Positions 26,150 through 41,639 of a DNA stretch of 57,164 nucleotides are shown in pieces. The first letter of the stretch is position 1, and every line of letters begins with the position of its first letter. The notes under the pieces are model-generated. The model did not search any database. It had not been told where the DNA came from and saw only the letters and a list, made by a program, of their open reading frames with translations. Made by a program: the position numbers and the translations under genes. This DNA comes from Prorocentrum cordatum (taxonomy: Eukaryota): the NCBI GenBank assembly GCA_963575745.1, contig CAUYUJ010000043.1, forward strand, positions 62,001-119,164, given 5' to 3'.

Positions 26150-27480
26150 GGGGGTGAGATCGAAGTGGAACGGAGAGCCCCCCTACTGGGAAATCGATTT
26201 CGGTTTCGCGTTCGTGCCGTGCGTGCGGGCGAGGCGAAGCTGCGTGGGCGGAGGAGAGGAAATTCTCCTGTGGCTGGGCCGCAGCTGGACCAAAAGGATG
26301 TCCGCCCGGCAACCAGTGCCGCGCGTTGTCCTGCAGGTGTTCTGCTGGCGTCCCGCTGGTGCCCCGCCGGCGCCCCGTCGTGGCAAGGCCGCGGCCGGGC
26401 CGAAAAGTTCTCCGCCAGGCAACCGGTGGCGCGCGTTGTCCCGCCGGTGTCCCGCTGGTGTCCCGCTGGTGTGCCTGTTGAGATCGACAGTGAGATCGAT
26501 AGTGAGACCGATAGTGAGATCGATAGTGAGATCTATAGTGAGAGATCGATCGTGAGATCTATAGTGATATCGATAGTGAGATCGATAGTGGGATCGATCG
26601 TGAGATCGATCGTGAGATCGATCGAGTGGGATTGATAGCGAGATCGATCGTGGAATCGACCGTGAGATGAGTAATGAGATCGAGAGCGAGATCGATAGTG
26701 ATATCGATAGCGAGATCGACAGTGGGATCGATAGTGGGATGGATCAGAGGTTGGGGGTGTGATCGAAGTGGAACGGAGAGCCCCCCACCGGGTAATCGGT
26801 TCCGGTTTCGTGTTCGTGCGTGCCGTTCGTGCGGGCGAGGCGAAGTTGCGTGGGCGGGCGAGAGGAAATTCTCCTGTGGCTGAGGCGCGGCCGGACCAAA
26901 TGATTCTCCCTCCGGCAAGCGGTGGCGCGCGGTGTCCCGCCGGTGTCCCGCTTGTGGCTGGTCCCCGGCTGGACCAAACGATTCTCCCTCCGGCAAGCGG
27001 TGGCGCGCGGTGTCCCTCCGGTGCCCCGCCGGTGTTCCGGTGTCCCGCTGGTGCGAAAACGATACTGAGACCGATGGCGAAATCGAGTGTGATAACGATA
27101 GTGAGATCGATAGTGGGACCGATAGTGAGATCGATCGTGAGATCGATAGTGAGATCGACAGTGAGATGAATAGTGATATCGATTGTGAGATCGAGCGGCA
27201 TCGATAGGGAGATCGTTAGTGGGATCGATAGCGAGACCCAAAGTGAGATCGACAGTGAAATCGATCGAGTGAGATCGATAGTGGGATCGATCGAGTGAGA
27301 TCGATACTGGGATCGATGGTCCCATCGATCGTGTGACCGATGACGGCATCGCTCGTGATATCTACAGATATATCGATAGTGAGATCGATGGTGCGATCGA
27401 TCGTGGGACCGATAACGACATCGCTTGTGAGATCGATAGAGAGATCGATCGTGATATCGATTGAGTGGGATCGATTGGTT
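26150..27480. repeat. Duplicated unit of about 600 bp containing (GAGATCGATAGT)n and (GGTGTCCCGCC)n
   Basis: 26152-26280 matches 26754-26885. GATC-rich 12-mer arrays at 26478-26745 and 27080-27475. Confidence 0.85.
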
Positions 27481-27951
27481 CCCAGGGGGGGGGGGGGGGG
27501 ATGATGCCAGGGCGCCCTGGAGCGAAGGGCGACGTGAACAATTCGACACCAAGGCTCCCAAGAGCGAGCGGCAACGCAACGATCACCACTGTTTCCCATT
27601 GCTGCCCCCCCTCCCCCCCGACCCCCTTATCACCTGCAGGGTGGTCGTATAGGTGTATATATTTGCATTTTAGAAGAGGTGAAGCCCCTTAAGGTAGAAG
27701 TAGGAAGGCTGAGCAATTAGGGAAGTTTTTTTTTTTTTTTTGTTTCTCCTTCTCCTCTTTCTGGAGAGAGAGTGCCAAAAAAACCCAAGGGCGTTTTTGG
27801 CCCCCAGACCTATGCATTTATTTGCAAAGGCATAGAAAACGAAAAAGCAGGAGGAGAGACAACAAAAAAAGGGACGACGGAGAGGGAGAAAAGAGAGAAG
27901 TGGGAACGCCAAGAGAAGAGGGAGGAGGAGGAGGAGGAGGAGGAGGAGGAG

Positions 27952-27986
<35 letters not shown>

Positions 27987-28309
27987 GGAGGAGGACAGCA
28001 AGCAGGGAGCTCAGCAGCATAGCTCAAGCGCTACCAGAGGGCCCTCCTCCCTCCCCCTCTCCCTCCCCCTCCCCCCCTCTCTCCTCCTTCCCCCCCCCCT
28101 CTCTCCCTTCCTCTCCCCCCCTCCCTCCCCCTCCCCCCTCTCCCCCTCCACGGCGGCGACGACGGCGGCGAAGACGACGACTACGACGACGACAAGCCCT
28201 GGGCCCTCGGGGGATGGCGCCGCGGTCGTCCAGCACCCCTAGGTGGGGGTGGGGACGGCAGCCCCCGAGGGTCGCAGGGTTATTTTTTAGCGCGCCACTG
28301 GCGTCTTGG

Positions 28310-28682
28310 GCGCCCTGCTCTCTGATTCCGATTGTCGAAGGCCTTTCGCGTCTTCGGCCGCCGCTGGGAGAGGGAGATTGCCGGTGCGACAAGAGATTCC
28401 AGAGAATGCACCAAGTGCATTCTTCAGTCGGCGCTGGGGGCGAGACCGGTGCACCAAGCGTGCTCTGAAGATAATTGCGCTTCAATATATTTTTATACAT
28501 ATTGCATTATATGTATCATTATCATAATCATCATTTGCGCTCTTGGCCGCCCTGCTCTCTGATTCCGATTGTCGAAGGCCTTTTGCGTCTTCGGCCGCCG
28601 CTGGGAGAGGGAGATTGCCGGTGCGACGAGAGATCTCAGAGAATGCGCCAAGTGCATTCTGAAGGTAACTGCGCTTCAATTC
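28310..28682. repeat. Direct repeat pair of about 115-135 bp upstream of the helicase gene
   Basis: CCCTGCTCTCTGATTCCGATTGTCGAAGG...CCAAGTGCATTC at about 28313-28422 and 28550-28659. Confidence 0.85.
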
Positions 28683-28867
28683 ATCTATCATAATAGAGTA
28701 TGATATGTATTATTACCATAATCTTCAGTTATTGTATCATTATCCATTTTCGTTATATGTTATCATTATTACCATTTGCCTCCTCCTCTCCTTCTCCTCG
28801 CCTCAGAGGCTCAAGCTTAGGCAGCAGACGAGTTACGCTGACTGCTTGTTGGCAATAAGGTTAGCTG

Positions 28868-31054
28868 ATGGCTAACGTCATATGCGGCGGCATGAAGACG
28901 TTGGGCGTTGTATTGGACTCGCCAGGGAAGACAAATCAAATCCTGGCAGATACGGACAAGGAAGTTACCAACAAGAAGTTGCAGTTTGCTACGGAAAATC
29001 CGACTATCAAGTGGCAGGCGCCCGTTGTGACCGAAATTTCTGATTTGCCTGTTTACCCATACCCACATGGGAACATTAATCAGAAAAACAGGTGGGTGGT
29101 TGATTGCGTTTTAGATTGGGATGGGAAGTTCGACAATGATGCACAGAATATCATCAAGCAGCTTTCAAATGATTTCCATGGAAGTAGCGAGTGGAGTGAA
29201 GGGTGGGATGGCAGTTACAATGACCATGTGAAAGGATTGATAGCTCAGCAAATGCAAACGGGCAGCTACGACAAGTTACCGCAACCGTTCGGTCCTTCGA
29301 GTTCGTGGCAAGTAGCGTGCACCATGCAGTTGGCGATTGTGCCCGCTGACGATAAGTGGCACGTGATCAAACACATTATGTTCGAAGAACAACAAAAGTT
29401 GATCAAAGTGACGGAAGAATTCGCGTGCGGAACCACTTACTGCCGCAGCTGGTGGCCTCACAACCCTTGGAGCTCTAAAAAAATATTCCAGAAGATATTC
29501 GAAGGGCTTGGTGGTTTTCAGATTCGATACGGAAAATGGCAAGGAGATGATGATGTGCAGAAGGTGGTTGATTTCAACAAAATCTCAGCCGGTTATGCAT
29601 TTATGCGCAAGATGAGGCCGTCCTCGAACAATGAAGGACAGTTCGCAGAGTGGGTGGATGTGTGGACCAAAAAACCAGGAAGCCCGATATTGGATTGGCC
29701 TGAAGCAAAGTGCAGATCGTTTTTGGAACGTTGTGCGAGAGGCGCGACAACTGCCAAAACGATTGACTTCAATTTCACCACCTACAAGGATTTGAAACCG
29801 TGGTTCTTGGATTTGGTGCTGAAAGATAAGATTACCACACATAAAGAACACGGTATTCTATGGATTGGAATTTCGGAATGCGGCAAAAGCTTGTGTTCGA
29901 GGACGCACGCTTTCATGGTGTCCAACCATTGGATAGCAGCAGAAAAGAGAGACGACGAGCAACCTGCCATCGCGACTGCCAAATTCATTGATATGTTCAG
30001 AGGCGAGCGAAACACTGTATTCAAGCCGTGTATCTTTGATGATGGACAATTCTATCAACTTGGGGCCGATCTGGTGACAGCTTTTTTATACCCCGCAGAG
30101 GTAGATGCTCTTCTATGGGCCAGATGGGGGGGCTCTGGTTTCGACATGTATTCGTGCCGCCAAGCAGCGAGTCAGCAGTGCGACAGTAAATTGGCCAAGA
30201 AACTTGCGCGCAAAGATAAAATCTCCGACAAGGATTGGCAGAAGCTCATTATGCCATCAATCGATAAAGAAGCAGACGATGAGGATTGGGTAGCATTCAG
30301 GCGTCGTTTCCACACTATTGTCATTACTCGCGAGGGAATTTTGCACCGCAATGAGACAAATGAGTTAGTGGACGTCCCCTGCATTCACTGGTCGAACGGC
30401 GAAGATATGGATATTTTCAAACCAGAGGTGAAAGAAGTTATGCAGAAATGGAAAAATGGGCAACTAAAGGGGGCTCCACCAAATTATCACGACGATGTGA
30501 AGTGGTCTTTGGAATATTTGAGCAGAGCCATGAGAGGCGAGGCGATTCCCCATTCGAGGACAATCAGGCCTTCATCTGCACGGGGCGCCAGAGGGTTATT
30601 CAATGATTCATCAATGGCATCCCAGTCATACGACCGTCCTCTATTGACGGCTGCCGGGTTTAGCTCTTTGGATCGCAGCGTGAATGCAGCTCCGATTGCG
30701 TTTTGCGGTGCCCTCGAGGACATTCAAGAAAGGCAGCGCATTCTATCAATGAAAGCAGAACCTCTCCACGGAAGCGAGTTTGATCTGACTGCCGTCACGC
30801 CGGAGAGGAAGCGCAGCAGGGCAGAGGAACCTGAGATTCCTGGCACACCCAAGAAAGAAAAGACCACGGCCGAGGCAGAACTAGCCGACGACGAGGAGAA
30901 CATGGAGAGAGTGTGGGAGGAAACTGGCACAGAGGAACTGGCCCGCGCCGTTCATGAGTCTCGCGTCAACGCGGGAATGTCTGCTGGATCTCGCCCAAGC
31001 AACCACGGTTTAGAGGAGGAGGACGTGTTTGGTCATCAGCGTGAGGGCATGTGA
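28868..31054 (+). CDS. 728-aa protein with a superfamily-3 (Rep/NS1-like) helicase domain
   Basis: Intact, intronless ORF. Walker A ILWIGISECGKS (29867-29890), Walker B PCIFDD (about 30026-30043), motif B'-like ARWG, motif C-like RQAASQ and Arg finger AFRRRF (about 30293-30310). Spacing is typical of SF3. Confidence 0.75.
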   Translation: MANVICGGMKTLGVVLDSPGKTNQILADTDKEVTNKKLQFATENPTIKWQAPVVTEISDLPVYPYPHGNINQKNRWVVDCVLDWDGKFDNDAQNIIKQLSNDFHGSSEWSEGWDGSYNDHVKGLIAQQMQTGSYDKLPQPFGPSSSWQVACTMQLAIVPADDKWHVIKHIMFEEQQKLIKVTEEFACGTTYCRSWWPHNPWSSKKIFQKIFEGLGGFQIRYGKWQGDDDVQKVVDFNKISAGYAFMRKMRPSSNNEGQFAEWVDVWTKKPGSPILDWPEAKCRSFLERCARGATTAKTIDFNFTTYKDLKPWFLDLVLKDKITTHKEHGILWIGISECGKSLCSRTHAFMVSNHWIAAEKRDDEQPAIATAKFIDMFRGERNTVFKPCIFDDGQFYQLGADLVTAFLYPAEVDALLWARWGGSGFDMYSCRQAASQQCDSKLAKKLARKDKISDKDWQKLIMPSIDKEADDEDWVAFRRRFHTIVITREGILHRNETNELVDVPCIHWSNGEDMDIFKPEVKEVMQKWKNGQLKGAPPNYHDDVKWSLEYLSRAMRGEAIPHSRTIRPSSARGARGLFNDSSMASQSYDRPLLTAAGFSSLDRSVNAAPIAFCGALEDIQERQRILSMKAEPLHGSEFDLTAVTPERKRSRAEEPEIPGTPKKEKTTAEAELADDEENMERVWEETGTEELARAVHESRVNAGMSAGSRPSNHGLEEEDVFGHQREGM

Positions 31055-31514
31055 GAAATGCAATTTGCACTGAAAGCGATTCGCGCAACTCTGCGACGCG
31101 AGTTTCAAGTCAGCTGATTGCTGACAATGTTTGTGCGTTGCAATATAATTGTATATCTTTTGATAGTTGCGAGATTGACTGCTGGTCAACTATGTATATA
31201 AATGCTGCTGCTAGCAGCGAAACTAGTGCATAACGTTGGTATGTAAATGCCGCTGCTAGCGGCGAAACTCACTCGCGTGCTTGCAAACTGTCGCTGCTAG
31301 CGATGCAGGAGAGACTCGGCTTGATATTGCGTTTAGAAAAAAAGGATAATACTTGGCAGTTCTGCTGAATCGTGTTTACGATTTCCATATCGATCAATGT
31401 CATTCTTATTTGTTGTCGCCGCAGTAGCCATCGGCTCGAAACAAATTGGCTTATTGCCAACTCTACGCAAGTTTGTGTTTTCGCAAGCTCTATATAAGTC
31501 GGCTTCTCGCCGAC

Positions 31515-32793
31515 ATGCAATACTGTACCATTGCCAAATGTTTTCGCTGTTCTTCTGTGCTTCAAGAGAAAACGGGCGCAGGCCGAGATCACGAAGCCAC
31601 GGTTTGGAACGGATCTGCTTGGGAGCGCGTTAAGCATGGAACGAAAATATGTACGAACCAGAAGTGCCGGACAATTCATAAGCTCAATTACGCTCGGTGT
31701 TATAATATGAGATTAAATTTCTTGACAAAAGACAACGTCACGGATCAAACTATTCTGTTGTTGCACCCGGGCTTGGGTTTCAGATGGTGTTATTTACGTC
31801 AACTTTGGCATCGCACGTGTCGCTCTGCTCAAGCAGCCGGAGCGGAAGCAGCAGCTATTTTGCTTACGTATCCCGATTGGAAGCCACAGTACGAGGAAAA
31901 AGGGAAAACAGAAAAGAAAAAAAGGTAATCACATGGAGAATTTTCCCGGCCGTAAGATTCACGACGCCTTGTGTTGTTATCTCAGGATTCAAGAGGAAGG
32001 CGTTTGCGATTTCGACGTTACAGATCCCGTTCCAGAGAAAGACCCTGACTACGGCGTAAAGAACGAAGGGTTCTTTGAGATCTTCAATGCGGCCAAACAT
32101 GACATAGACTTCAAGCGAAGTGGTGAGATCAATAACCCTAAAGACGTCGTTGCAGATGGGAACGAGAAGGTGACGCGCATCGTAATGGAGGACGAGAAGA
32201 AGTTCAACAAGAAATACAAGCAGAAAGGCAGACCCGTTGTAAACAAAAAGGATCGACGATGCCAGCACGTCAAAAAGGTTGCCGTAATTAAAGAGAAAAG
32301 AACCAGAATTGGAGGTCGCTGGGTTACAATGGACATGAAGAAGAGAGGCCAGGAAGGGGCCTTAAATGCAATTCTCCACTTGGGAGAGATGATGAATTGT
32401 GAATGCTCAGAATATAAGAAGGAAGCGTTGCGACAGTTAAAGAAATCTAAGATTGCAGTTCGCGATTACGTTGGAGATTGCAATTGTATGTATCACGACT
32501 GGAAAGGAACCTTGTTTTCTGGTGGATGTTATCTCGATGGGTTCCATTGGAAAAGACACAAATGTGATGCGCCTCGTTTCCCGAAGAAGAAGTCGACTTG
32601 CAATTCTCAAGCTGCCGAGCAGTTCTGGTCAAAGTTGAACAAATTGCGGTTTCTATACACAATGCGAAGAGCTCATTACAGATTTCTCCTTAGGCAGTTC
32701 TGCGTGTGGCGCAACCGATTCTGTCGTTCTGATAAGCATAGGAAGGACTACACCCCGGCAGTCAGCAAGAAGCGGGCTCGCACGGGCAAGTGA
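31515..32793 (+). CDS. CxC5-like cysteine cluster plus KDZ (Kyakuja-Dileera-Zisupton) transposase, with one extra A in the A7 run at 31917-31923
   Basis: MQYCTIAKC...HGTKICTNQKCRTIHKLNY, VVADGNEK, YVGDCNC, LDGFHWKRHKC and CNSQAAEQFWSKL...M...YRFLL...RN. Removing one A fuses the two ORFs into 425 aa. Confidence 0.8.
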
Positions 32794-33211
32794 ATAACTG
32801 GGAAATATTTCCATTCATTAAGAGAGCTGCTTGCTCTCACAAGAAAGCTTTTCGCTTTCACGTTAGGCGCTGCAAGCGCAAGAAGACTGATCGTCTTCAT
32901 ACTGACAGAGGCGCAGCCTACAACAGTTTTACTGCTCAAGTTGCGTCTCAAAAAACATCATTCATCATAATCAATATCACCATTCAGGCACATTAATTAC
33001 CATCGCTACACAGATTATCACCATTATCAATACAGTTATCATTATCCATATCATCATTATCATCATTATCGATATCATCATTCATTCATAGTGCAACGCA
33101 ATATCATGATCATAACAATGTTGTTGCGTTGCCACAGCTGCAATTGTTCTTATATTGCCGCTATATCATCCGTACCTCTCGCGGCTCGAGATATCCTCTT
33201 TGAAAGCTCTC

Positions 33212-34600
33212 ATGGAGGAGTTGCGCCGCATCATCGGAACAGCGGGGCCGGCGCCAGATGCGATCAGTAGATCTTCAAGTTGGGATTCATTTGGAGACGC
33301 TCTATGGAAAGACTTGAAGGCAAAACACAATTTAACGGTTTCGAAACAAATGCGCGAATCCAAAAAGAAAGGAGGTGGAGTAATTGGGATTTGGAAAAGT
33401 TTGTTCCCAGAGGCTGCACTCGCTCTCGAATCTGGACCCTTTGCCAAGACAAATAATCAATATTCAAACGGTGGTTCTTCTTCAGCGCATCCTCAACCAA
33501 TTGTGTACGTCCCTGTGCATTATCCATATGCTGGCAATTATTATGGGTGTCAATACGCTGGGAACTTTTATAGCGGTTATCAGACAACGCATGAAACTGG
33601 TGGACAGAGAGCAACTATTAAAGAGAGTTCTTCATCGTCTTCTTCTTCAGAGGACGAGTGCGAGGCATTTGGAGAAATCAATGCAAAGTCGAAAGGTTCA
33701 CCTCCAACCGATCACGCCGATGAGTTGGGACCAACGCAAGGGGCGCAACCAAAAAGTTTGGCGCTCAGCAGCAAGAAACGTTGTTGGGCGGATAGTTCGC
33801 AAGATGGGGATTTGTTAAGCCCGCGCAGCGAGTGCCCAATGCCACCTCCTCCTCCGCAATCCGCCGCTGCCAGTGACATTCCGCATATCGAAAAGAAGAA
33901 ATACAGTGATATTTGGCTTATCGCGGGAGATGATGCGCTGCATCCCGGTTTCTTGCAAAGCATTGAAAAGGAATCGGCTGACAACGGTTGCGCGCTCGAT
34001 CGCATCAAGCTGCCGGCAAACATTGTTCTGCACACTGGTGTGGCGTTATCTCACGTGCTGTTCTGTTTGGATGCTGGCCTCTTCGGAGAACAAGTCAAGG
34101 GCGACGCAAACGTCCACTGCGTCATTTCAGAAGGCTGCTTAAAAACGTGGCCGAGATCATATCAGTCGTCATTCAAAAACAGATTGGATAACATTAACCA
34201 TTGTCTGAGGTCCTTTGGAGTGGATGGGAAGTCGACTCGTTGGATGGAGTCAGAGGCAAAGCAAGCGAACTTCTCGCGCGAATTCCTGCTGAGAGCTTCC
34301 TTGAAAACTTTCATGGTATTAGGAGACGGACCCGTTGGCACTATAGACGTACCTGTTTACAAGGAGAGACTTTGCTGGCTTAAGAAGCGCGTGCTCTCCG
34401 AGGACAATCTCATTGAGGAGATTGTTTACGCGAACAATTACACTCCTGACACGGCGCCGAACGGCGTGAGGCTATGGCGCAACCCAGGAAGCGAGACTAA
34501 GGATATGTTGCGTGAAATTTCAATCCGATCTGGGACTGGCGCCAATGTGCTCGTAGTTGTGCTTGACCCAGCGGGCAGAGCGCTTTGCCCTAAATGGTAG
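33212..34600 (+). CDS. Hypothetical protein of about 462 aa: helical N-terminus, disordered middle, alpha/beta C-terminal half
   Basis: Long open frame of complex composition in the low-GC cassette. The first in-frame ATG is at 33212. Confidence 0.7.
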   Translation: MEELRRIIGTAGPAPDAISRSSSWDSFGDALWKDLKAKHNLTVSKQMRESKKKGGGVIGIWKSLFPEAALALESGPFAKTNNQYSNGGSSSAHPQPIVYVPVHYPYAGNYYGCQYAGNFYSGYQTTHETGGQRATIKESSSSSSSSEDECEAFGEINAKSKGSPPTDHADELGPTQGAQPKSLALSSKKRCWADSSQDGDLLSPRSECPMPPPPPQSAAASDIPHIEKKKYSDIWLIAGDDALHPGFLQSIEKESADNGCALDRIKLPANIVLHTGVALSHVLFCLDAGLFGEQVKGDANVHCVISEGCLKTWPRSYQSSFKNRLDNINHCLRSFGVDGKSTRWMESEAKQANFSREFLLRASLKTFMVLGDGPVGTIDVPVYKERLCWLKKRVLSEDNLIEEIVYANNYTPDTAPNGVRLWRNPGSETKDMLREISIRSGTGANVLVVVLDPAGRALCPKW

Positions 34601-34862
34601 ATTTCTTGGCTTGTATACTGCGACGTGCAATTACCAGAAGTGGTTGTTAGCAGTTGAATCTCTGCTCTCACCTTCTCCTCGTTCTCGCCCCAAGCTGGCT
34701 GCTCGCTAGCATTCCTAATGTAGCTGCTAGCTACACCCAAGGTAGCTGCTAGCTACCGCGCGCTTGGATAGCCCGCAGAGGAGCATCGCGAGGAAAAATA
34801 CACACCTGCGCTTCGCGCTCCATTCCGCCGTCTCCGTGGTGCTCATAGGACCTGCGGTGTTC

Positions 34863-34873
34863 TTAGTAGTAAC

Positions 34874-34929
<56 letters not shown>

Positions 34930-34992
34930 GTAGTAGTAGTAGTAGACTGGTCGTAGTAGTAGTAGTAGTAGTATAAGTAGTAGTAAGTAGTC

Positions 34993-35038
<46 letters not shown>

Positions 35039-35092
35039 TAGTATTGGTAGTAGTAATAGTGGCAGTAGAGAGACAAGAGGGGTAGACAGAGA

Positions 35093-35140
<48 letters not shown>
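34863..35140. repeat. (TAG)n and (GA)n microsatellites
   Basis: Read directly from the sequence. Confidence 0.95.
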
Positions 35141-35145
<5 letters not shown>

Positions 35146-35208
35146 GCCGCAGCCACCGGGCTCAAATCTACAAGCCGAGAAGACTAACCAACTGCTGGTT
35201 GGTTACGT

Positions 35209-36129
35209 ATGAAAACATTAGGCGCAGCCTCTTCAATGGATTCAAGTGATGGCAACAAATGGAATTGTGGAACGCAAGCCAGAGATTTTGAGAGACTCAT
35301 ATTGACAGATTTGGAACAGCAGCCAAAACCAACCAGTAGCTTTGGACCAATAACAGTGAACGCAGTAGGGGAATTGGACCCAACGGTGCCATGGTTGGAA
35401 CGAGCACAGAAGTTGTATGATGTCACTAATCAGAATTTGAAAGTTTTGTGCGACGCAGGCGCGGCAGGGCCTTTCTATAATGTGTCTGGGTTCAGCTGCA
35501 AGCAGTTTTTACCTTTTGACGAATTCGCAAAGGCGTGGAATTACAGATGCGGTCTAGTATTTTGGGGAAGCCCCCATTGGGGAAGCGGAAATGATGAGAC
35601 TACACAGGAGTGGAAGGACTCGGCGCAGTTCAAAACAAACGCATGGGAAAGTATGGCATGGCTAGCGGAGTCAGCGTGCATAATGATGGCGTTTCATGCA
35701 TGCTACAAAGTGGAATTCTGGAATCCAAGCTATTCAAAAGCAGGCTCGGACGCAGACACGCGCGCAAAGCGACAGTTGGTGGTGGCACCAGCGTACTTTT
35801 GAAGCTACGCGCCCATAAAATCTGGCAACATATACAGTGAGATTAACTCGTACAGGAACATACCGGTGATGATCGCATTACTGGTGCCGGCTCGTTTCAA
35901 AGATCTGACTACCTACCACGACGGCATACAAATTGACGTGGGAATGACAATGTTCAAAATATATCAACATTTGCACTTGCAAGATGAACATGCAATAGAG
36001 CTTGGAGGTCAAACATTTGCATTATCAATGGAATTGCATTTGGCAAAGGAGGAACTGCTTGAAACGAAAAAAGCACAGCTGCGCATGGAAATGAATGATC
36101 CAGTTGCAATGAATGTGGACAGCTCATAA
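35209..36129 (+). pseudogene. Hypothetical protein of about 306 codons with one internal TGA (35800-35802)
   Basis: ORFs 35209-35802 and 35866-36129 are in the same frame with no other stop between them. Confidence 0.6.
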
Positions 36130-36404
36130 TCGTTAGCGCTTGATTTGCGCGTAGAATAACACTCGCAATATCTCCTCCATCTCCTCTCCGATCTCTTCCT
36201 ATGCTGGCTGCTCGCTAGCATTCCCAAGGTAGCTGCTAGCTACCACGTGCTTAGATTCCCAGCAGAGAAAACGCGTGTTCGCAGAAACAAAACAATGAAA
36301 ATAACATAACATTTCTTTTGATCGTGCAGATTTCCACGCTTTCCGCCCTCTTCCGCCGTCTCCGCGGTGCTCATAGGATCTGTTGTAGATGCAGGCATTG
36401 CGGT

Positions 36405-37410
36405 TTCCCCCTTCTGTATTCCGCAGCAGAGGTAATTCTTGTGTATGTCATCACAAAAGGAATTCCTTTGTATTCCGCAACAAAAGAAATCCTTTTGAAT
36501 TTCGCCACAAAAGGAATTCCTTTGTCTTCTGTCACGAGAATTCTTTTGTATCGTACCGCAAAAGGAATCCGTTCGTATTCCGCCACAAAGTTAATCCTTT
36601 CGTATTCAGCCACAAAGGAAATCCTTTTGTATTCCGCCACAAAAGGAATCCCTTTGTATTCCGCCACAAAGGGAATTCTTTTGTATTCAGCTACAACGGG
36701 AATTCTTTTGTATTCAGCCACAAAGGGAATCCTATTGTAATTAATATAGATGCTGTAAACATTGTGTTTTCACAGAGATTCAGAGAATTTCAATAAAAAC
36801 AATGAAAAACAATTTGTTTCATTTGTGTTTTCACAGAGATTCAGAGATTTTTCATTGAAAATATTGTTTTTTCATTGCCAGGCACAGAGATCTCAGAGAT
36901 TTTAATGATTTTCCAACTATGGAGGATAGTTTTTTATGAAATCTGTGTGAAAACACAATGTTTTCTTTGATTTTTGAATAGAAAACCAAAGAAAACCTTG
37001 TGTTTTCACAGAGATTTCATAACAAACTATCTTCCATAGTTGGAAAATCATTAAAATCTCTGAGATCTCTGTGCCTGGCAATGAAAAGACAATATTTTTG
37101 TTTTTATTAAAAATCTCTGAATCTCTGTGAAAACACAGATAAAACCAATTGTTTTTTAGTGTTTTCTTTAAAATTCTCTGAATCTCTGTGAAAACACAAT
37201 GTTTCAATATCTATACGAATTACAATAGCATTCCTTTTGTAGCGGAATACAAAGGAATTCCTTTTGTGGTGGAATACAAAGGATTTCTTTTTGTAGTGGA
37301 ATACAAATAGAATCTTTGGTAACGGAATGCAAAAGGATTTTCTTTTGTGGCAGAATACAAACGAATTGCCTTTGTGATGGAGTACTAAGGAATTCTCCAA
37401 GGAATTCCTC
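36405..37410. repeat. AT-rich foldback palindrome of about 1 kb, centred near 36978, with 30-bp tandem repeats in the outer arms
   Basis: 36871-36923 is the exact reverse complement of 37033-37085. TTGTATTCCGCCACAAAAGGAAT units on the left are mirrored by TTCCTTTTGTGGTGGAATACAAA units on the right. Confidence 0.92.
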
Positions 37411-37474
37411 TTACAAATAAATGCATAGGGAGGGTGCCAAAAAAGCCGCCAGGCTTTTTTGGCCCCCTCTATGT

Positions 37475-38200
37475 CTTTCTGCCCGAGGTTTTTGGAATTG
37501 CCAGCAACTTGGCCAGCCGACTGGTCGCGCCCATCGCCTGGGGCGTGATTTGCGCGAATAAGTTGGTTCGGAATTTGTTGGCGACGGCCGGTCGGGGAGT
37601 CGCAGTCTGGGCTTGAGATCCCGAGCGCTTCGCCTTCGCCACCTTCTCGGGCGCAGGTGGAGTGGGATTCCGAGCCCGCCTGCGCGACCCCCGAGGACTC
37701 CCAGGAGACCCCGCCCAGGCAGCGTGGATGATCCTCGCTGCCGATTCGGATCGGTCTCGGAAGAGGGCGTCTCGAGTGTCTATCCTGGGGTGGAGGCCAT
37801 GTCAGTTAAAGCGGAAGGTGCCTTGTACCTTAGCGGGAGAAGCGCTATCGCTGTCAGCAGCAGTAGCAGAGGTAGAATACATGCAGGTGTTATTTCGCGA
37901 TGTTGTGCTTCATGATGATGATGTTCCTGACTGCAGGAGCCTCTGGTCCGTTTACCACTATCTTGAGATCGGAGCGGTACAAAGGAAATGGTCGGGAGAC
38001 CCAGCTTCATGTAGTAGACGCTAAATCAGCGTATGACATGACGCACAAGGAGGGCAACGCCAGCTCCAAGGACAGGCGCACGGCGTTGGAGCTTGCTATT
38101 ATATCACAGTCATGGGACAAAAATCAGAGGGGTCTTCCGGTGAGTAGCCCGCATTCGGATGATCGTAGATTCCATGACCCAAGGCGACACTAGCAAGTCC
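37475..38200 (+). pseudogene. Copia RT C-terminus and RNase H, resuming after the insertion
   Basis: PEVFGIASNLAS...ANKLVR, LGWRPCQLKR...TLAGEALSL, LHVVDAKSAYD, DRRTALELAII and MIVDSMT. Confidence 0.85.
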
Positions 38201-40040: not shown

Positions 40041-40199
40041 TAAGTCGGGCCTGTCCCTCTACAGGAGGAATCTTCAAATCTAGTCAAACAAAATAGTCAA
40101 GGGATGATTTGTCGACTCTTCTTGCATATTGTTGAATGTGTTTTGAGTATTTTTGATTTTTCGTCCAAACTCCGCTTGTAAGAGGACATGCCCGACCGA
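40041..40199. mobile_element. MITE-like element, copy 3
   Basis: TAAGTCGGGCCTGTCCCTCTACAGG ... CTTGTAAGAGGACATGCCCGACC. Confidence 0.75.
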
Positions 40200-40253
40200 A
40201 CTCCAGACGGCCGGGGGGTGGCGACTGGGGCGCCGCCTCGATCGGTCACCCAG

Positions 40254-40427
40254 CGCTCCCCGTCTGGGGCTCCCTCATGCAGTTCTACAGCCCCCGGGAG
40301 CTGATGACGTTCGGCTGCGTGCTGTGGGGCCTGGCCACGCTGCTGCTGGCTGCGGCCTCGAGCTACGAGGTGCACCTCGCCTTGCGTCTGGTGGCTGGGG
40401 CAGCCTTGGCGAGCGTTGCACCCGTCG
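40254..40427 (+). CDS. MFS transporter exon (ALPVWGSLMQFYSPRELMTFGCVLWGLAT...LALRLVAGAALASVAPVG)
   Basis: CAG acceptor at 40251-40253. Encodes the TM2-TM4 region with the R...G motif. GA donor at 40428. Confidence 0.8.
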
Positions 40428-41639
40428 GACGTCCACGGCCAGAACAGGTCCAGATCCACCGCGTCGGGGTCGTTCCCACCCAGACCCAGAGATCTAACGT
40501 TTTGAGAAAGTCAAGCCGAATGGTTTTCGCCGTAGGAGCCCTCGTCTGGCCCCGTGACAATCAAAAACGCCGAGTCTGGATGGAACGCTGGTCCTGGGGA
40601 GTGGGTCCAGACCTCAGGGGACCCCGTCTTGAAAACAAGCAGGACATCAGCTTCCTAAAACATATGGGGCGTTCCAAGCAGGGCCTTACCTTCGAGGATC
40701 GAAGGAGTTGTCGTCTCTTCCGCGGCGGAAGGCGGCGGAACGGCGGCGGCAGGTCGGCTGAAGTAGAGCGAGGCCGCCCCCGCTGGCGGAAGCCTGCGGA
40801 AGCTCGGCCGAAGGCGGCGGAAGTAAAGCATGAGGACCCAAGAGATGAACACGTTCTTGGGTTCAGGGTCTCCGACGTCGCCCATCTGGAACATGTGGGG
40901 AAACGAAGGGGAAGACGGGCATCCAGAAAACTGTGCAGCACCGAGTGGAAGTCCTGGAGCTCGTGTCTGGTCCTCCCTGCGTCTCCCCAGGCCCCTTGAA
41001 CGTCGCATCTCTTGGGGGCCGCGCCGGGGTCGTGGCCCGGGGGAAGAGGAGAAGGAGGAGGAGGAGGAGGAGAAGGAGGAGGAGGAGAAGGAGGAGGAAG
41101 AGAAGGAGGAGGAGGAGGAGGAGGAGGAGGGGGAGGAGGAGGAGGAGGAGGAGGAGGAGGAGGAGGAGGAGGAGGAGGAGGAGGAGGAGGAGGAGGAGGA
41201 GGAGGCTCGAGGGGAGTCGTGGCTGTGGGTGCCTGTGCCTGCCCGCCCCCCCAGGCGGGCGGGCGGGCCCCTGTGCAACCGCGCCCCCCCCCGCTCCCAG
41301 GCCTTCCCCTGGGGCCAGGCCTCGAGAGGCCGTGTCGGGAGCCTTGAGACTCTAGAGGCCTCCTACCCAGAGATCCAACGGTTTGAAAAGAAACAAGACG
41401 GAGGTTTCTCTCAAGGCCCCTCCTAGGCCCGCGTCTTGGAGTGTGCCCAGGAACCCAGAGACCCAACGCATTGAACAAATCAAGACGGAGTTTTTTCGCA
41501 ATTTTCGGTCTCTAGGGGCCCTCGCCAGGCCCCGGGACCGTCAAAAAATGACTCAGGATGAAAAACCGGTCCTGGGGAATGGATGGAGACTTCGGGTGAT
41601 CTCGTATTGAAAACAAACACGACATCGGGTCTCTGGGTA

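Follow-up and report, generated by a model that had tools for sequence, protein, structure and literature searches.

Introduction

The Kyakuja-Dileera-Zisupton (KDZ) superfamily is among the least characterised superfamilies of DNA transposons. According to PMC12730594, Zisupton is the only KDZ group that has been well characterised together with its ends, and target site duplications (TSDs) measure 8 bp in Zisupton and Dileera and 7 bp in Kyakuja. Zisupton and Kyakuja have also been reported from Chlamydomonas (PMC8226300). The elements of the Zisupton/Dileera type encode a transposase with a CxC-type N-terminal cysteine cluster and a KDZ catalytic domain, and they are multi-gene elements with additional ORFs.

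In bacteria, the gene of a DDE transposase lies beside a co-oriented gene for a P-loop/AAA+-like ATPase in IS21 (IstA/IstB), Mu (MuA/MuB) and Tn7 (TnsB/TnsC), with the helper gene downstream of the transposase gene. We know of no eukaryotic cut-and-paste transposon with an AAA+-type helper or an SF3-type initiator, and a literature search for such a pairing found none. Among eukaryotic DNA transposons, AcademH and KolobokH encode a helicase of the DEAD/Helicase_C (SF2) type (PMC10799480), and Teratorn, a piggyBac-herpesvirus fusion of 180 kb that contains an entire herpesvirus genome, joins a DDE cut-and-paste transposon to viral-type replication genes (PMC10175614).

Here, we describe a locus within a 57,164-nt stretch of genomic DNA of Prorocentrum cordatum (the window, to which all positions refer). 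Its novelty lies in the unusual accessory genes that accompany a likely KDZ DNA transposon.

Results

A discrete low-GC element with TIRs and a TSD

The element spans 9,710 bp (27764-37473), and its ends, as defined by the terminal inverted repeats (TIRs), coincide exactly with the coordinates proposed by an initial annotation of this DNA (Table 1). The low GC content claimed there was also confirmed, with 46.9% in the element vs 60.2% and 60.4% in the left and right flanks, and 0.43-0.50 in the element genes vs 0.60 in the flanks. The TIRs are imperfect and 67 nt long, and their alignment score of 57 compares with 16 +/- 1.9 (maximum 22) in 200 shuffles. Within the left TIR are a hairpin (GCCAAAAA..TTTTTGGC) and the core CTATGCATTTATTTG, which has two exact occurrences in the 57-kb window, in inverted orientation, where 0.06 would be expected by chance. 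Both copies of the TSD lie 3 nt outward of the ends of the TIR alignment. When 20-nt flanks were compared, matches of at least 8 nt turned up in 44 of 5000 shuffles and in 71 of the 5000 window pairs drawn at random, a chance rate of about 1% of trials, and the context is CT-rich. These evaluations of TIRs and TSD refer to a single copy: no second full copy with other flanks, empty site, excision or circle junction was seen, and among the joints listed for public-run contigs (15 of 87) none spans the element. A discrete mobile element is supported by the TIRs and the TSD, which fit the pattern of Zisupton and Dileera.

Table 1. Features of the element and its borders in the window
Feature	Position	Strand	Evidence
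Left TSD copy, 8 bp, TCTTTCTG	27756-27763	.	Flank comparison
Left TIR	27764-27833 (aligned part 27767-27833)	+	Inverted-repeat alignment
Left non-coding part: (GGA)n, C-rich low-complexity, tandem duplication	27834-28867	+	Repeat search
P-loop ATPase, 728 aa	28868-31054	+	Homologue alignment; matched by no curated family
KDZ-like DDE transposase, N-terminal Cys cluster	31515-32793	+	Pfam on relatives, alignment, run contigs
ORF3, 462 aa	33212-34600	+	Homologue alignment
Direct repeat copy 1	34669-34854	+	Repeat search
ORF4, 306 codons	35209-36129	+	Frame analysis
Palindrome, ~1 kb, of 27-nt tandem units	36410-37395	.	Repeat search, folding
Right TIR	37404-37473 (aligned part 37404-37470)	-	Inverted-repeat alignment
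Right TSD copy, 8 bp, TCTTTCTG	37474-37481	.	Flank comparison

Several repeats occupy the non-coding parts of the element. Upstream of the ATPase gene lies a tandem duplication of ~237 nt (28304-28536 and 28541-28730). ORF4 is bracketed by a pair of direct repeats with 83-87% identity, the second at 36178-36382, and microsatellites of (TAG)n and (AG)n (34864-35140) come after the first. The palindrome has a unique inverted pair at its centre (near 36978), flanked by two inverted arrays at 36410-36739 and 37216-37395, and its outer arm adjoins the right TIR; one listed inverted pair measures 117 nt at 95% identity, and the whole folds as one long hairpin of -328.9 kcal/mol, a value without a shuffle control at such length.

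The insertion had been thought to interrupt a copia element, which we did not detect in the flanks. Reverse transcriptase, integrase, RNase H and protease domains were absent from 112 flank frames (16 + 96) scanned with Pfam, and none of the six frames contains a YVDD, DSG or CCHC-type pattern; the two histidine/cysteine-pattern matches obtained both fall within low-complexity sequence. Such a search could overlook a heavily decayed copy.

A compact and distant KDZ-like transposase

The transposase frame of the window copy is not the single intact frame described initially, as a surplus A in the homopolymer at 31917-31923 (7 A) shifts it. Contigs of three public runs from three studies (X1, X2 and X5) have one base fewer at 31917, resulting in an open frame of 425 codons, and near-identical copies from public runs are open at this site. 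The run contigs differ from the window at 23 visible sites, 7 of them synonymous and 16 non-synonymous, which indicates that the copies drift neutrally and lends no support to current selection.

Neither KDZ (PF18758) nor any other Pfam family matched the window transposase frames at E<=1. At least 257 representatives of its relatives were found at E<=1e-3 in a library of 1.84 billion proteins, and a Pfam scan of 52 family members, each of at least 240 aa, detected CxC5 (PF18718) in eight (best E 3.4e-6) and KDZ in six (best E 1.9e-5), in the expected order along the proteins, with at most one member matched by each other family. The KDZ matches cover profile positions 5-214 of 217; those listed individually score 16-21 bits for KDZ and 18-23 bits for CxC5, below the Pfam cut-offs of 26.6 and 26.9, respectively.

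A D-D-E triad with an H/C-rich insert before the E is the pattern that defines KDZ. Multiple sequence alignment of the family demonstrates conservation of the D of DGN (48/49), the D of DCxC (38/38) and the E of AEQ (34/35), as well as of the H (37/38) and C (38/38) of an HxKxHKC insert. All of these residues are kept in the window transposase, and the motifs DGNEK, GDCNC and AAEQ previously put forward as its triad are indeed present in these conserved columns; cysteines and histidines are also visible in the frame 31515-31928. The KDZ assignment made initially is backed by the matches of the relatives and the retained D-D-E residues, but not by any Pfam match of the window protein itself, and the listed relatives stay below the cut-offs. 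Taken together, it is credible that the window transposase is a distant KDZ member.

The element resembles Zisupton and Dileera in its TIRs and 8-bp TSD (PMC12730594), in its additional ORFs and, as a remote signal, in the cysteine cluster followed by a KDZ domain. It differs in its much shorter transposase (~425 aa, below the Pfam KDZ cut-off), in its extra genes, which encode a 728-aa P-loop ATPase and two proteins without known family instead of TET/JBP, and in its host, a marine protist/alga and not a fungus or animal.

A conserved P-loop ATPase with possible affinity to SF3 or IstB-type proteins

Judging from its sequence, the 728-aa protein is certainly a conserved P-loop ATPase with Walker A and B motifs. 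It comprises a conserved N-terminal domain of ~300 aa, the ATPase core and an acidic C-terminal tail. The core contains Walker A (G334-K340-S), Walker B (D391-D392) at a spacing of 51 residues, R419-W-G421, R431 and A476..R480; [ST][NQ] near 437-438 and R480 are candidates, read by eye, for motif C and the arginine finger. Walker A and B at short spacing are common to all AAA+-type ATPases. Six close homologues and seven distant loci were identified, and across an alignment of 10 sequences with identity down to 20%, G334, G339, K340 and D391-D392 are invariant, together with further residues beyond Walker A/B. The motifs GISECGKS, CIFDD and AFRRRF, on which an SF3 helicase had been proposed, occur in conserved columns (G334/G339/K340, D391-D392 and R480, respectively). 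No conserved catalytic residues, whether acidic, His or Tyr of the nuclease/primase type, were found in the N-terminal domain, which has no HUH, Tyr or primase motifs and no similarity to Rep_OBD or P4 primase.

Profile searches did not bear out the SF3 assignment. With the ATPase as query, Pfam, PHROGs, NCBIfam and PDB sequence searches picked up only Walker A; there was no SF3 match in NCBIfam or in full-length Pfam scans of eight family members, and Pfam on seven ATPase-core stretches yielded a single RNA_helicase match (E 0.16), on Walker A of one distant relative (L005). Comparison by hhalign with self-built SF3 profiles of the P4 type (9-42 sequences) gave probabilities of 42.8% (23 columns) and 21.8% (87 columns), and a bona fide P4-type SF3 protein (L061) gave 1.9%.

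Self-built IstB_IS21 profiles reached 82-88%. The best of them (34 sequences) scored 88.2% with E 2.9e-6 over 153 aligned columns (reversed-query control, 0.3%), in an alignment that runs from upstream of Walker A across Walker B to a C-terminal A..R..H..G segment and places the IstB sensor-1 strand on a variable part of the ATPase. This value is not specific, since single generic AAA+ proteins score 25-82% through Walker A alone, and the Pfam IstB_IS21 model matches no member of the ATPase family. Thus, profile-profile comparison weakly favours an IstB-type AAA+ protein. In a protein-language-model atlas, the neighbours of the ATPase (scores 0.90-0.94, 191-216 of 256 features in common) are clusters that carry PF00910 RNA_helicase with Rep_OBD, Viral_Rep, Gemini_AL1 or Parvo_NS1. 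The atlas alone points to the Rep/SF3 class, with a recognition of 2261, slightly below the mark of 2300 under which a high score is weak evidence.

Compared with the SF3 initiators (CRESS Rep, parvovirus NS1 and P4 alpha/D5-type), the ATPase has a similar Walker spacing, a by-eye order of B', C and arginine finger, and neighbours with PF00910, Rep_OBD or Parvo_NS1; it differs in lacking HUH, Tyr and primase motifs as well as any profile match, and in being encoded within a transposon that has TIRs, a TSD and a DDE transposase. With IS21, Mu and Tn7 the locus shares the adjacency of a DDE transposase gene and a co-oriented ATPase gene, and with IS21 also the best profile match of the ATPase core; the bacterial helpers are smaller (253-266 aa for IstB frames), their transposase families are unrelated to KDZ, and Pfam detects no IstB_IS21 in the window family.

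Accessory ORFs and gene linkage

ORF3 has a low-complexity N-terminal half and a conserved C-terminal domain of ~230 aa, whose invariant residues include D233, W235, G239, D240, H274, D287, C303, S306, E307, R324, D326, N327, N329 and D338. ORF4, taken initially as an uninterrupted gene of 306 aa, contains an in-frame TGA at codon 198 (35800-35802); removal of a 45-nt GT..AG interval at 35793-37 would take out this stop. Pfam assigned no known family to either ORF. Hence, four co-oriented frames on the forward strand do exist as claimed, but they are not four intact genes, given the shifted transposase frame and the TGA in ORF4.

The ATPase, transposase and ORF3 have 6, 4 and 8 homologues, respectively, mostly in ENA metagenome assemblies. 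For a member of the ATPase cluster (P0172, 37% identical) and an ORF3 homologue (P0160, 40%), both from Logan+ENA, the longest contig measures 8,495 nt and is probably one and the same; at such identity, a shared contig speaks for conservation of the genes as a module. The ATPase gene of the window lies 460 nt upstream of the transposase gene in the same orientation. At another locus (L004), an ATPase relative (24% identity) is followed by a co-oriented IS1595-like DDE transposase (Pfam E 0.005, sub-threshold), and a palindromic repeat region likewise lies 3' of the ATPase relative. In both cases, a gene of the ATPase family immediately precedes a DDE transposase gene of the same orientation, and the two transposases are unrelated. 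Conserved linkage of KDZ transposase and helicase at other loci, suggested initially as a check, was not found: none of the seven distant ATPase loci, most of them shorter than 3.3 kb, has a KDZ or ORF3 relative, none of 23 transposase-family clusters has a longest contig equal in length to that of an ATPase or ORF3 cluster, and KDZ-ATPase linkage is documented at the window locus only.

Discussion

We consider it likely that 27764-37473 is one copy of a KDZ superfamily transposon with an accessory ATPase, ORF3 and ORF4 of its own. The element would move by cut and paste through its compact DDE transposase of ~425 aa, whose N-terminal cysteine-cluster DNA-binding domain may recognise the TIRs, and would insert via an 8-bp staggered cut, as in Zisupton and Dileera. 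Decay of the window copy is slight and amounts to a single frameshift, in the homopolymer of the transposase gene, and a single stop codon within the ORF4 frame. The three accessory genes probably belong to the element and not to the host, because their GC is low like that of the element, their homologues are few and mostly come from metagenomes, and relatives of the ATPase and ORF3 probably share a contig. Our best guess is that the ATPase, of the AAA+ superclass, acts on the element's own DNA jointly with the transposase. As to how, we lean, still tentatively, towards an SF3-like hexameric helicase that binds either an origin or the element ends, for which the 27-nt iteron palindrome would be the putative binding site; with slightly less confidence, we see it as a possible AAA+ helper of the IstB/MuB/TnsC kind, engaged in target selection or in activation of the transposase, and that it is something else seems less probable still.

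It would be rather unlikely, in our estimation, for the locus to be a self-replicating virus-like or plasmid-like element, in which an SF3 initiator (origin-binding N-domain plus helicase) starts from an iteron palindrome origin and the KDZ transposase only integrates or excises the episome. The Rep/SF3-type atlas neighbours, the ~1-kb palindrome inside the element, a size and layout of the ATPase like those of viral initiators, and the possibility of reading Walker A, Walker B, K..AR, [ST][NQ] and A..RR plus strand by eye as SF3 motifs A, B, B', C and arginine finger would agree with such a replicon. It is opposed by the atlas recognition below its mark, by the absence of SF3 profile matches together with the P4-type hhalign values, and by an N-domain that has no conserved residues of the nuclease/primase type and is unlike Rep_OBD or P4 primase; moreover, no Pfam family of capsid, packaging ATPase or DNA polymerase was found in any element frame, IMG/VR viral contigs contain no relatives of the ATPase, ORF3 or transposase, and no circular junction is present among the joints listed.

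It is conceivable, though doubtful, that the ATPase is a eukaryotic counterpart of IstB, MuB and TnsC that binds target DNA and/or the transposase tail and steers the KDZ transposase without any replication. The best profile match and the position of ATPase genes upstream of both KDZ and IS1595-like transposases speak for such a helper, but that match is unspecific, is missing from Pfam and puts the sensor-1 strand on a variable segment, the ATPase, with its large conserved N-domain, is ~3x as big as IstB, and the adjacency amounts to two cases, one of which depends on a sub-threshold Pfam match. Passive cargo, that is, host or foreign genes caught between KDZ TIRs like fungal TET/JBP and with no role in mobility, appears improbable. 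KDZ and other DNA transposons are described as acquiring cargo genes (PMC12730594), no function can be assigned to ORF3 or ORF4, and the contigs of distant ATPase relatives lack a KDZ gene; on the other side are the GC of all three genes, which is that of the element and not of the host, their few and mostly metagenomic homologues, as for the transposase, the probable shared contig of ATPase and ORF3 relatives, and the compact, co-oriented arrangement of the four genes.

Within the preferred reading of a KDZ transposon with its own accessory genes, the element has partial parallels in eukaryotes. Like AcademH and KolobokH (PMC10799480), it is a eukaryotic DNA transposon with a helicase gene, here a putative one, but its ATPase has no DEAD or Helicase_C domain in Pfam and its transposase is KDZ-like. 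In concept it recalls Teratorn (PMC10175614), but it has four genes in 9.7 kb, among which no virion or polymerase gene is detectable. We also entertain, with considerable doubt, an undescribed kind of eukaryotic transposon with two components, a large AAA+/SF3-like ATPase as the constant one and a DDE transposase that can be exchanged (KDZ here, IS1595/Merlin-like on L004). It could possibly represent the first eukaryotic analogue of the target-selecting helpers IstB/MuB/TnsC, or possibly a cut-and-paste transposon that amplifies as an episome from its iteron palindrome by means of its own initiator helicase.

For the KDZ superfamily, the locus provides a member that is complete and delimited at both ends, from a marine eukaryote of high GC content, with a minimal transposase of 425 aa. 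If the ATPase works with the transposase, the element would connect eukaryotic transposons with the bacterial design of transposase plus AAA+ protein or, alternatively, with self-replication of a virus-like kind.

Boundaries and composition of the element

The GC content of the window falls to 40-52% at 29-38 kb, compared with about 60% on both sides; for the element itself it is 46.9%, versus 60.2% in the left flank and 60.4% in the right, which bears out the initial annotation of a region lower in GC than the host sequence. A terminal inverted repeat (TIR) pairs 27767-27833 with the reverse complement of 37404-37470 at an alignment score of 57, compared with 16 +/- 1.9 (maximum 22) for 200 shuffles of one arm. 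Each TIR arm contains a short hairpin, GCCAAAAA..TTTTTGGC, along with a core, CTATGCATTTATTTG, that occurs exactly twice across the 57-kb window, the two occurrences being inverted to each other (0.06 expected). Moreover, an identical octamer, TCTTTCTG, is located at 27756-27763 and 37474-37481, 3 bases beyond each TIR arm; by chance, two 20-nt flanks shared 8 nt or more in 44 of 5000 shuffles that preserved composition, and in 71 of 5000 pairs drawn at random from the window. The TIRs and flanking octamers therefore define a unit of 9,710 bp at 27764-37473, the same interval as annotated initially. Judged on this single copy, the element resembles a TIR transposon flanked by a target-site duplication (TSD) of 8 bp. 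None of the 15 joints listed from run contigs spans the element.

Four co-oriented genes had been proposed, and all four are present on the + strand, as are the motifs quoted for them. The length of 462 aa for ORF3 was confirmed, but the transposase gene turned out to be split between two frames and the 306 codons of ORF4 to be interrupted by TGA.

Features of the element and its surroundings, in window coordinates
Feature	Position	Strand	Description
12-nt satellite arrays (TGAGATCGATAG)	26479-27475		directly left of the element
237-nt tandem duplication			upstream of the ATPase gene
P-loop ATPase gene	28868-31054	+	728 aa
Transposase gene	31515-31928 plus 31933-32793	+	one gene across two frames
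ORF3	33212-34600	+	462 aa
Direct repeats	34669-34854 and 36178-36382		~185-205 nt, 83-87% identical, on either side of ORF4
ORF4	35209-36129	+	306 codons, TGA at codon 198
Palindrome	36410-37395		~1 kb; two arrays, inverted to each other, of 27-nt tandem units; adjoins the right TIR
(GAG)n	51028-51190		precedes the (TGATGA)n array
(TGATGA)n array	51288-57164		5.9 kb, to the window end; 979 copies, 83% matches

A probable, remote member of the KDZ superfamily

Three full-length homologues of the transposase (P0008-P0010; 423-433 aa, 49-55% identity) align to the first and then to the second of its two frames, and the break between these frames falls within seven consecutive A (31917-31923). Contigs from three studies (public sequencing runs X1, X2, and X5) have one base fewer at 31917, i.e., six A, at depths of 24.5, 4.46, and 4.79, respectively, the latter two below the level where a single contig may err. 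The six-A version of the gene is a 425-codon frame. Since the run contigs do not have the extra A, the seventh A is either a frameshift peculiar to the window copy or an assembly error in the homopolymer.

Pfam gave no match at E<=1-5 for the two window frames and three close relatives. Out of 1.84 billion, 257 representatives matched the transposase profile at E<=1e-3 (166 at E<=1e-10 and 69 at E<=1e-30), most of them fragments, and 52 members of at least 240 aa each were scanned against Pfam. The CxC5 domain ("cysteine cluster associated with KDZ transposases") was matched by eight of the 52 (best E 3.4e-6) and the KDZ domain by six (best E 1.9e-5), and each of the 13 other families listed was found in no more than one. 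Among the relatives listed individually, CxC5 is N-terminal and the KDZ match extends over profile positions 5-214/217, with all scores under the Pfam cut-offs. Conservation extends to the putative catalytic residues: the DGN motif keeps its D in 48 of 49 sequences, DCxC its D in all 38, and AEQ its E in 34 of 35. The HxKxHKC motif keeps its H in 37 of 38 and its C in all 38, and each of these residues is found in the window copy. Thus, the residues of the CxC-KDZ transposase described initially are intact and its frame in this copy is not, and KDZ membership, which is remote and below cut-off in the individually listed relatives, is probable from these sequence comparisons. In addition, three larger proteins of the family (P0019, P0025, and P0029; 685-872 aa) have N-terminal extensions of 270-400 aa that resemble neither any window sequence nor a Pfam family.

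Passages of PMC12730594 give 8-bp TSDs for Zisupton and one Dileera family, the same length as in the element, and 7-bp TSDs without TIRs for Kyakuja, in contrast to the 8-bp TSD and TIRs observed here. The element thus agrees with the Zisupton/Dileera side of the superfamily.

Class of the P-loop ATPase

Six homologues of the 728-aa protein (25-53% identity) were detected in a collection of 5.8 billion clusters, and seven distant loci (21-27% identity) in JGI metagenome contigs. Residues W262, W277, A296, G334, G339, K340, S352, F377, G379, P387, D391, D392, R419, G421, R431, A476, and R480 are invariant across 10 sequences, and the Walker A to Walker B distance is 51 residues. The protein is therefore a genuine P-loop ATPase under constraint, which, as judged from its sequence, is a member of the AAA+ superclass not close to any family tested. 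Neither its N- nor its C-terminal region resembles Rep_OBD, the P4 primase, IstB, or SF3 in profile comparisons, and no acidic, His, or Tyr position is conserved in the first 300 residues.

One hypothesis, that of the initial annotation, takes this protein for an SF3 helicase and the element for self-replicating. Motifs B', C, and the arginine finger can be read by eye, and in the atlas (a protein-language-model feature search) every one of the closest named clusters has PF00910 RNA_helicase accompanied by Rep_OBD, Viral_Rep, Gemini_AL1, or Parvo_NS1, at scores of 0.90-0.94 and a recognition of 2261, which is just below the mark under which high scores are weak evidence. However, Pfam, PHROGs, NCBIfam, and PDB yielded nothing past Walker A; PDB sequence searches with all profiles A1-A5 (A5 being the transposase alignment) gave no matches or Walker A alone at E>=0.06, and tblastn against phages gave no match. 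Profile-profile comparison of the ATPase core (residues 290-540) with self-built target profiles by hhalign also speaks against SF3: the SF3 profiles compared, all of them P4-type, reached probabilities of only 42.8% (23 columns; 9-sequence profile) and 21.8% (87 columns; 42-sequence profile), versus 81.7% (4-sequence profile) and 88.2% (34-sequence profile) for IstB_IS21. What stands of the initial assignment is a Walker A and Walker B ATPase; an SF3 class was not recovered in profile searches, and the atlas alone places it near Rep/SF3 proteins.

An equally live alternative is that the ATPase is an IstB-like helper of the transposase. The 88.2% alignment (E 2.9e-6) covers 153 columns, from pre-Walker A through the A..R..H..G segment, but single generic AAA+ proteins already score 25-82% from Walker A alone. 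For comparison, the true relatives DnaA and IstB scored 98-99% mutually, the ATPase core scored 2% with the DnaA profile and 1.9% with a true P4-type SF3 protein, reversed-query controls were at most 0.5%, and with P4 alpha alone Walker A was the sole aligned part. Rep-type SF3 references were also sought in Bacillota, where Rep_OBD was present in two of 401 genomes, in short frames, and weak PF00910 matches in five genomes were actually DnaA, RuvB-like, and similar proteins.

ORF3, ORF4, and internal repeats

ORF3 has eight homologues (37-64% identity) and a conserved C-terminal domain of about 230 aa; overall, 43 columns are invariant, among them D233, D240, H274, D287, C303, E307, D326, N327, and D338. 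This residue pattern makes the C-terminal domain look enzyme-like. No relative of ORF3 was found in Pfam, PDB, or the atlas (scores for the C-terminal domain <=0.84), and Pfam revealed no recurrent family in nine ORF3 relatives. ORF4, which matches no Pfam family, lies between direct repeats and may be a later insertion or duplication within the element. ORF4 may also contain a 45-nt intron, whose removal would take out the TGA.

In the palindrome beside the right TIR, the arrays surround a 117-nt inverted pair of 95% identity. Its single-stranded form is predicted to make one continuous hairpin, with a raw value of -328.9 kcal/mol that is not calibrated against shuffles. Candidate identities for the palindrome are a set of iterons bound by a protein, an origin, and a nested foldback element.

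Linkage of the four genes

All four genes share the GC content of the element, and only a handful of homologues, mainly from metagenome assemblies, was found for each. A member of the ATPase cluster (P0172, 37% identity to the window protein) and an ORF3 homologue (P0160, 40%) are both from Logan+ENA with a longest contig of 8,495 nt; given this equal length, they most likely share one contig, in a lineage far from that of the window. Among 23 transposase-family clusters, the longest contig was never 8,495, 8,420, or 6,681 nt, the values for the ATPase and ORF3 clusters P0172/P0160, P0181, and P0003, respectively. Relatives of KDZ or ORF3 were seen at none of the seven distant ATPase loci, which measure 1.3-5.3 kb, and scans of IMG/VR with the ATPase, ORF3, and transposase detected no relatives. 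Hence, the proposed coupling of KDZ transposase and helicase holds as a KDZ-ATPase pair at the window locus, the only one at which it is documented, and was not seen at the distant loci.

One metagenome contig (L004:2-5262) encodes a distant ATPase relative (24% identity) followed by a co-oriented 439-aa frame (2799-4118), which contains a zinc ribbon and matches DDE_Tnp_IS1595 below threshold (E 0.005), and then by a palindromic repeat region (4813-5153). This layout parallels the window element with a different transposase superfamily, the 439-aa frame being unrelated to the KDZ-like family of the window. So the ATPase family adjoins two different DDE transposases.

Occurrence in public sequencing runs

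Element words are present in runs of nine studies, two runs containing half or more of them, and the richest may be the source sample; no RNA run is listed among those that contain them. Contigs of X1, X2, X5, and X6 match the element at 90-100%, with 0-14 letter differences per 154-1279 nt in the listed pieces. The 23 listed single-letter differences inside genes comprise seven synonymous and 16 non-synonymous changes, as expected from neutral drift of copies, and this split is uninformative on family function, either way. Two fragments carrying the EukProt name Pyramimonas sp., P0007 (transposase, 82% identity to that of the window) and P0183 (ORF3 cluster, from a transcriptome-derived protein set), hint at transcription of such elements, and at a host that may be closer to prasinophyte green algae than to dinoflagellates. 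A dinoflagellate spliced-leader relic is absent from the window at <=3 mismatches, which carries little weight in 57 kb.

Flanking sequence

The element had been thought to interrupt a copia element. Among 112 flank frames, Pfam recognised none with a domain of reverse transcriptase, integrase, RNase H, or protease. The patterns YVDD, DSG, and CCHC were likewise missing from all frames; the pattern scan picked up just two histidine/cysteine spacings, both in low-complexity sequence. With neither copia domains nor patterns, an interrupted copia element is therefore not supported. The open frame 40157-40996 partially matches the Major Facilitator Superfamily (MFS_1, E 1.1e-7, just below cut-off) and probably represents one exon of a transporter gene of the host. 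In each of the runs X1, X2, X5, and X6, summed contig depth is far higher over the 12-nt satellite than anywhere else, and the (TGATGA)n array has a GC skew near +0.45 and 45% GC.

Relation to known transposons

In the literature searched, no KDZ element carrying a helicase or other P-loop ATPase turned up; KDZ families with other extra ORFs may be listed in the supplements of PMC12730594. Helicase-bearing DDE transposons are already known: passages of PMC10799480 describe AcademH and KolobokH, whose helicases belong to SF2. For the window element, the helicase label and self-replication are put forward as hypotheses. The element itself is a genuine DNA transposon with defined ends, probably of KDZ type, and its accessory genes form an unusual and conserved set.
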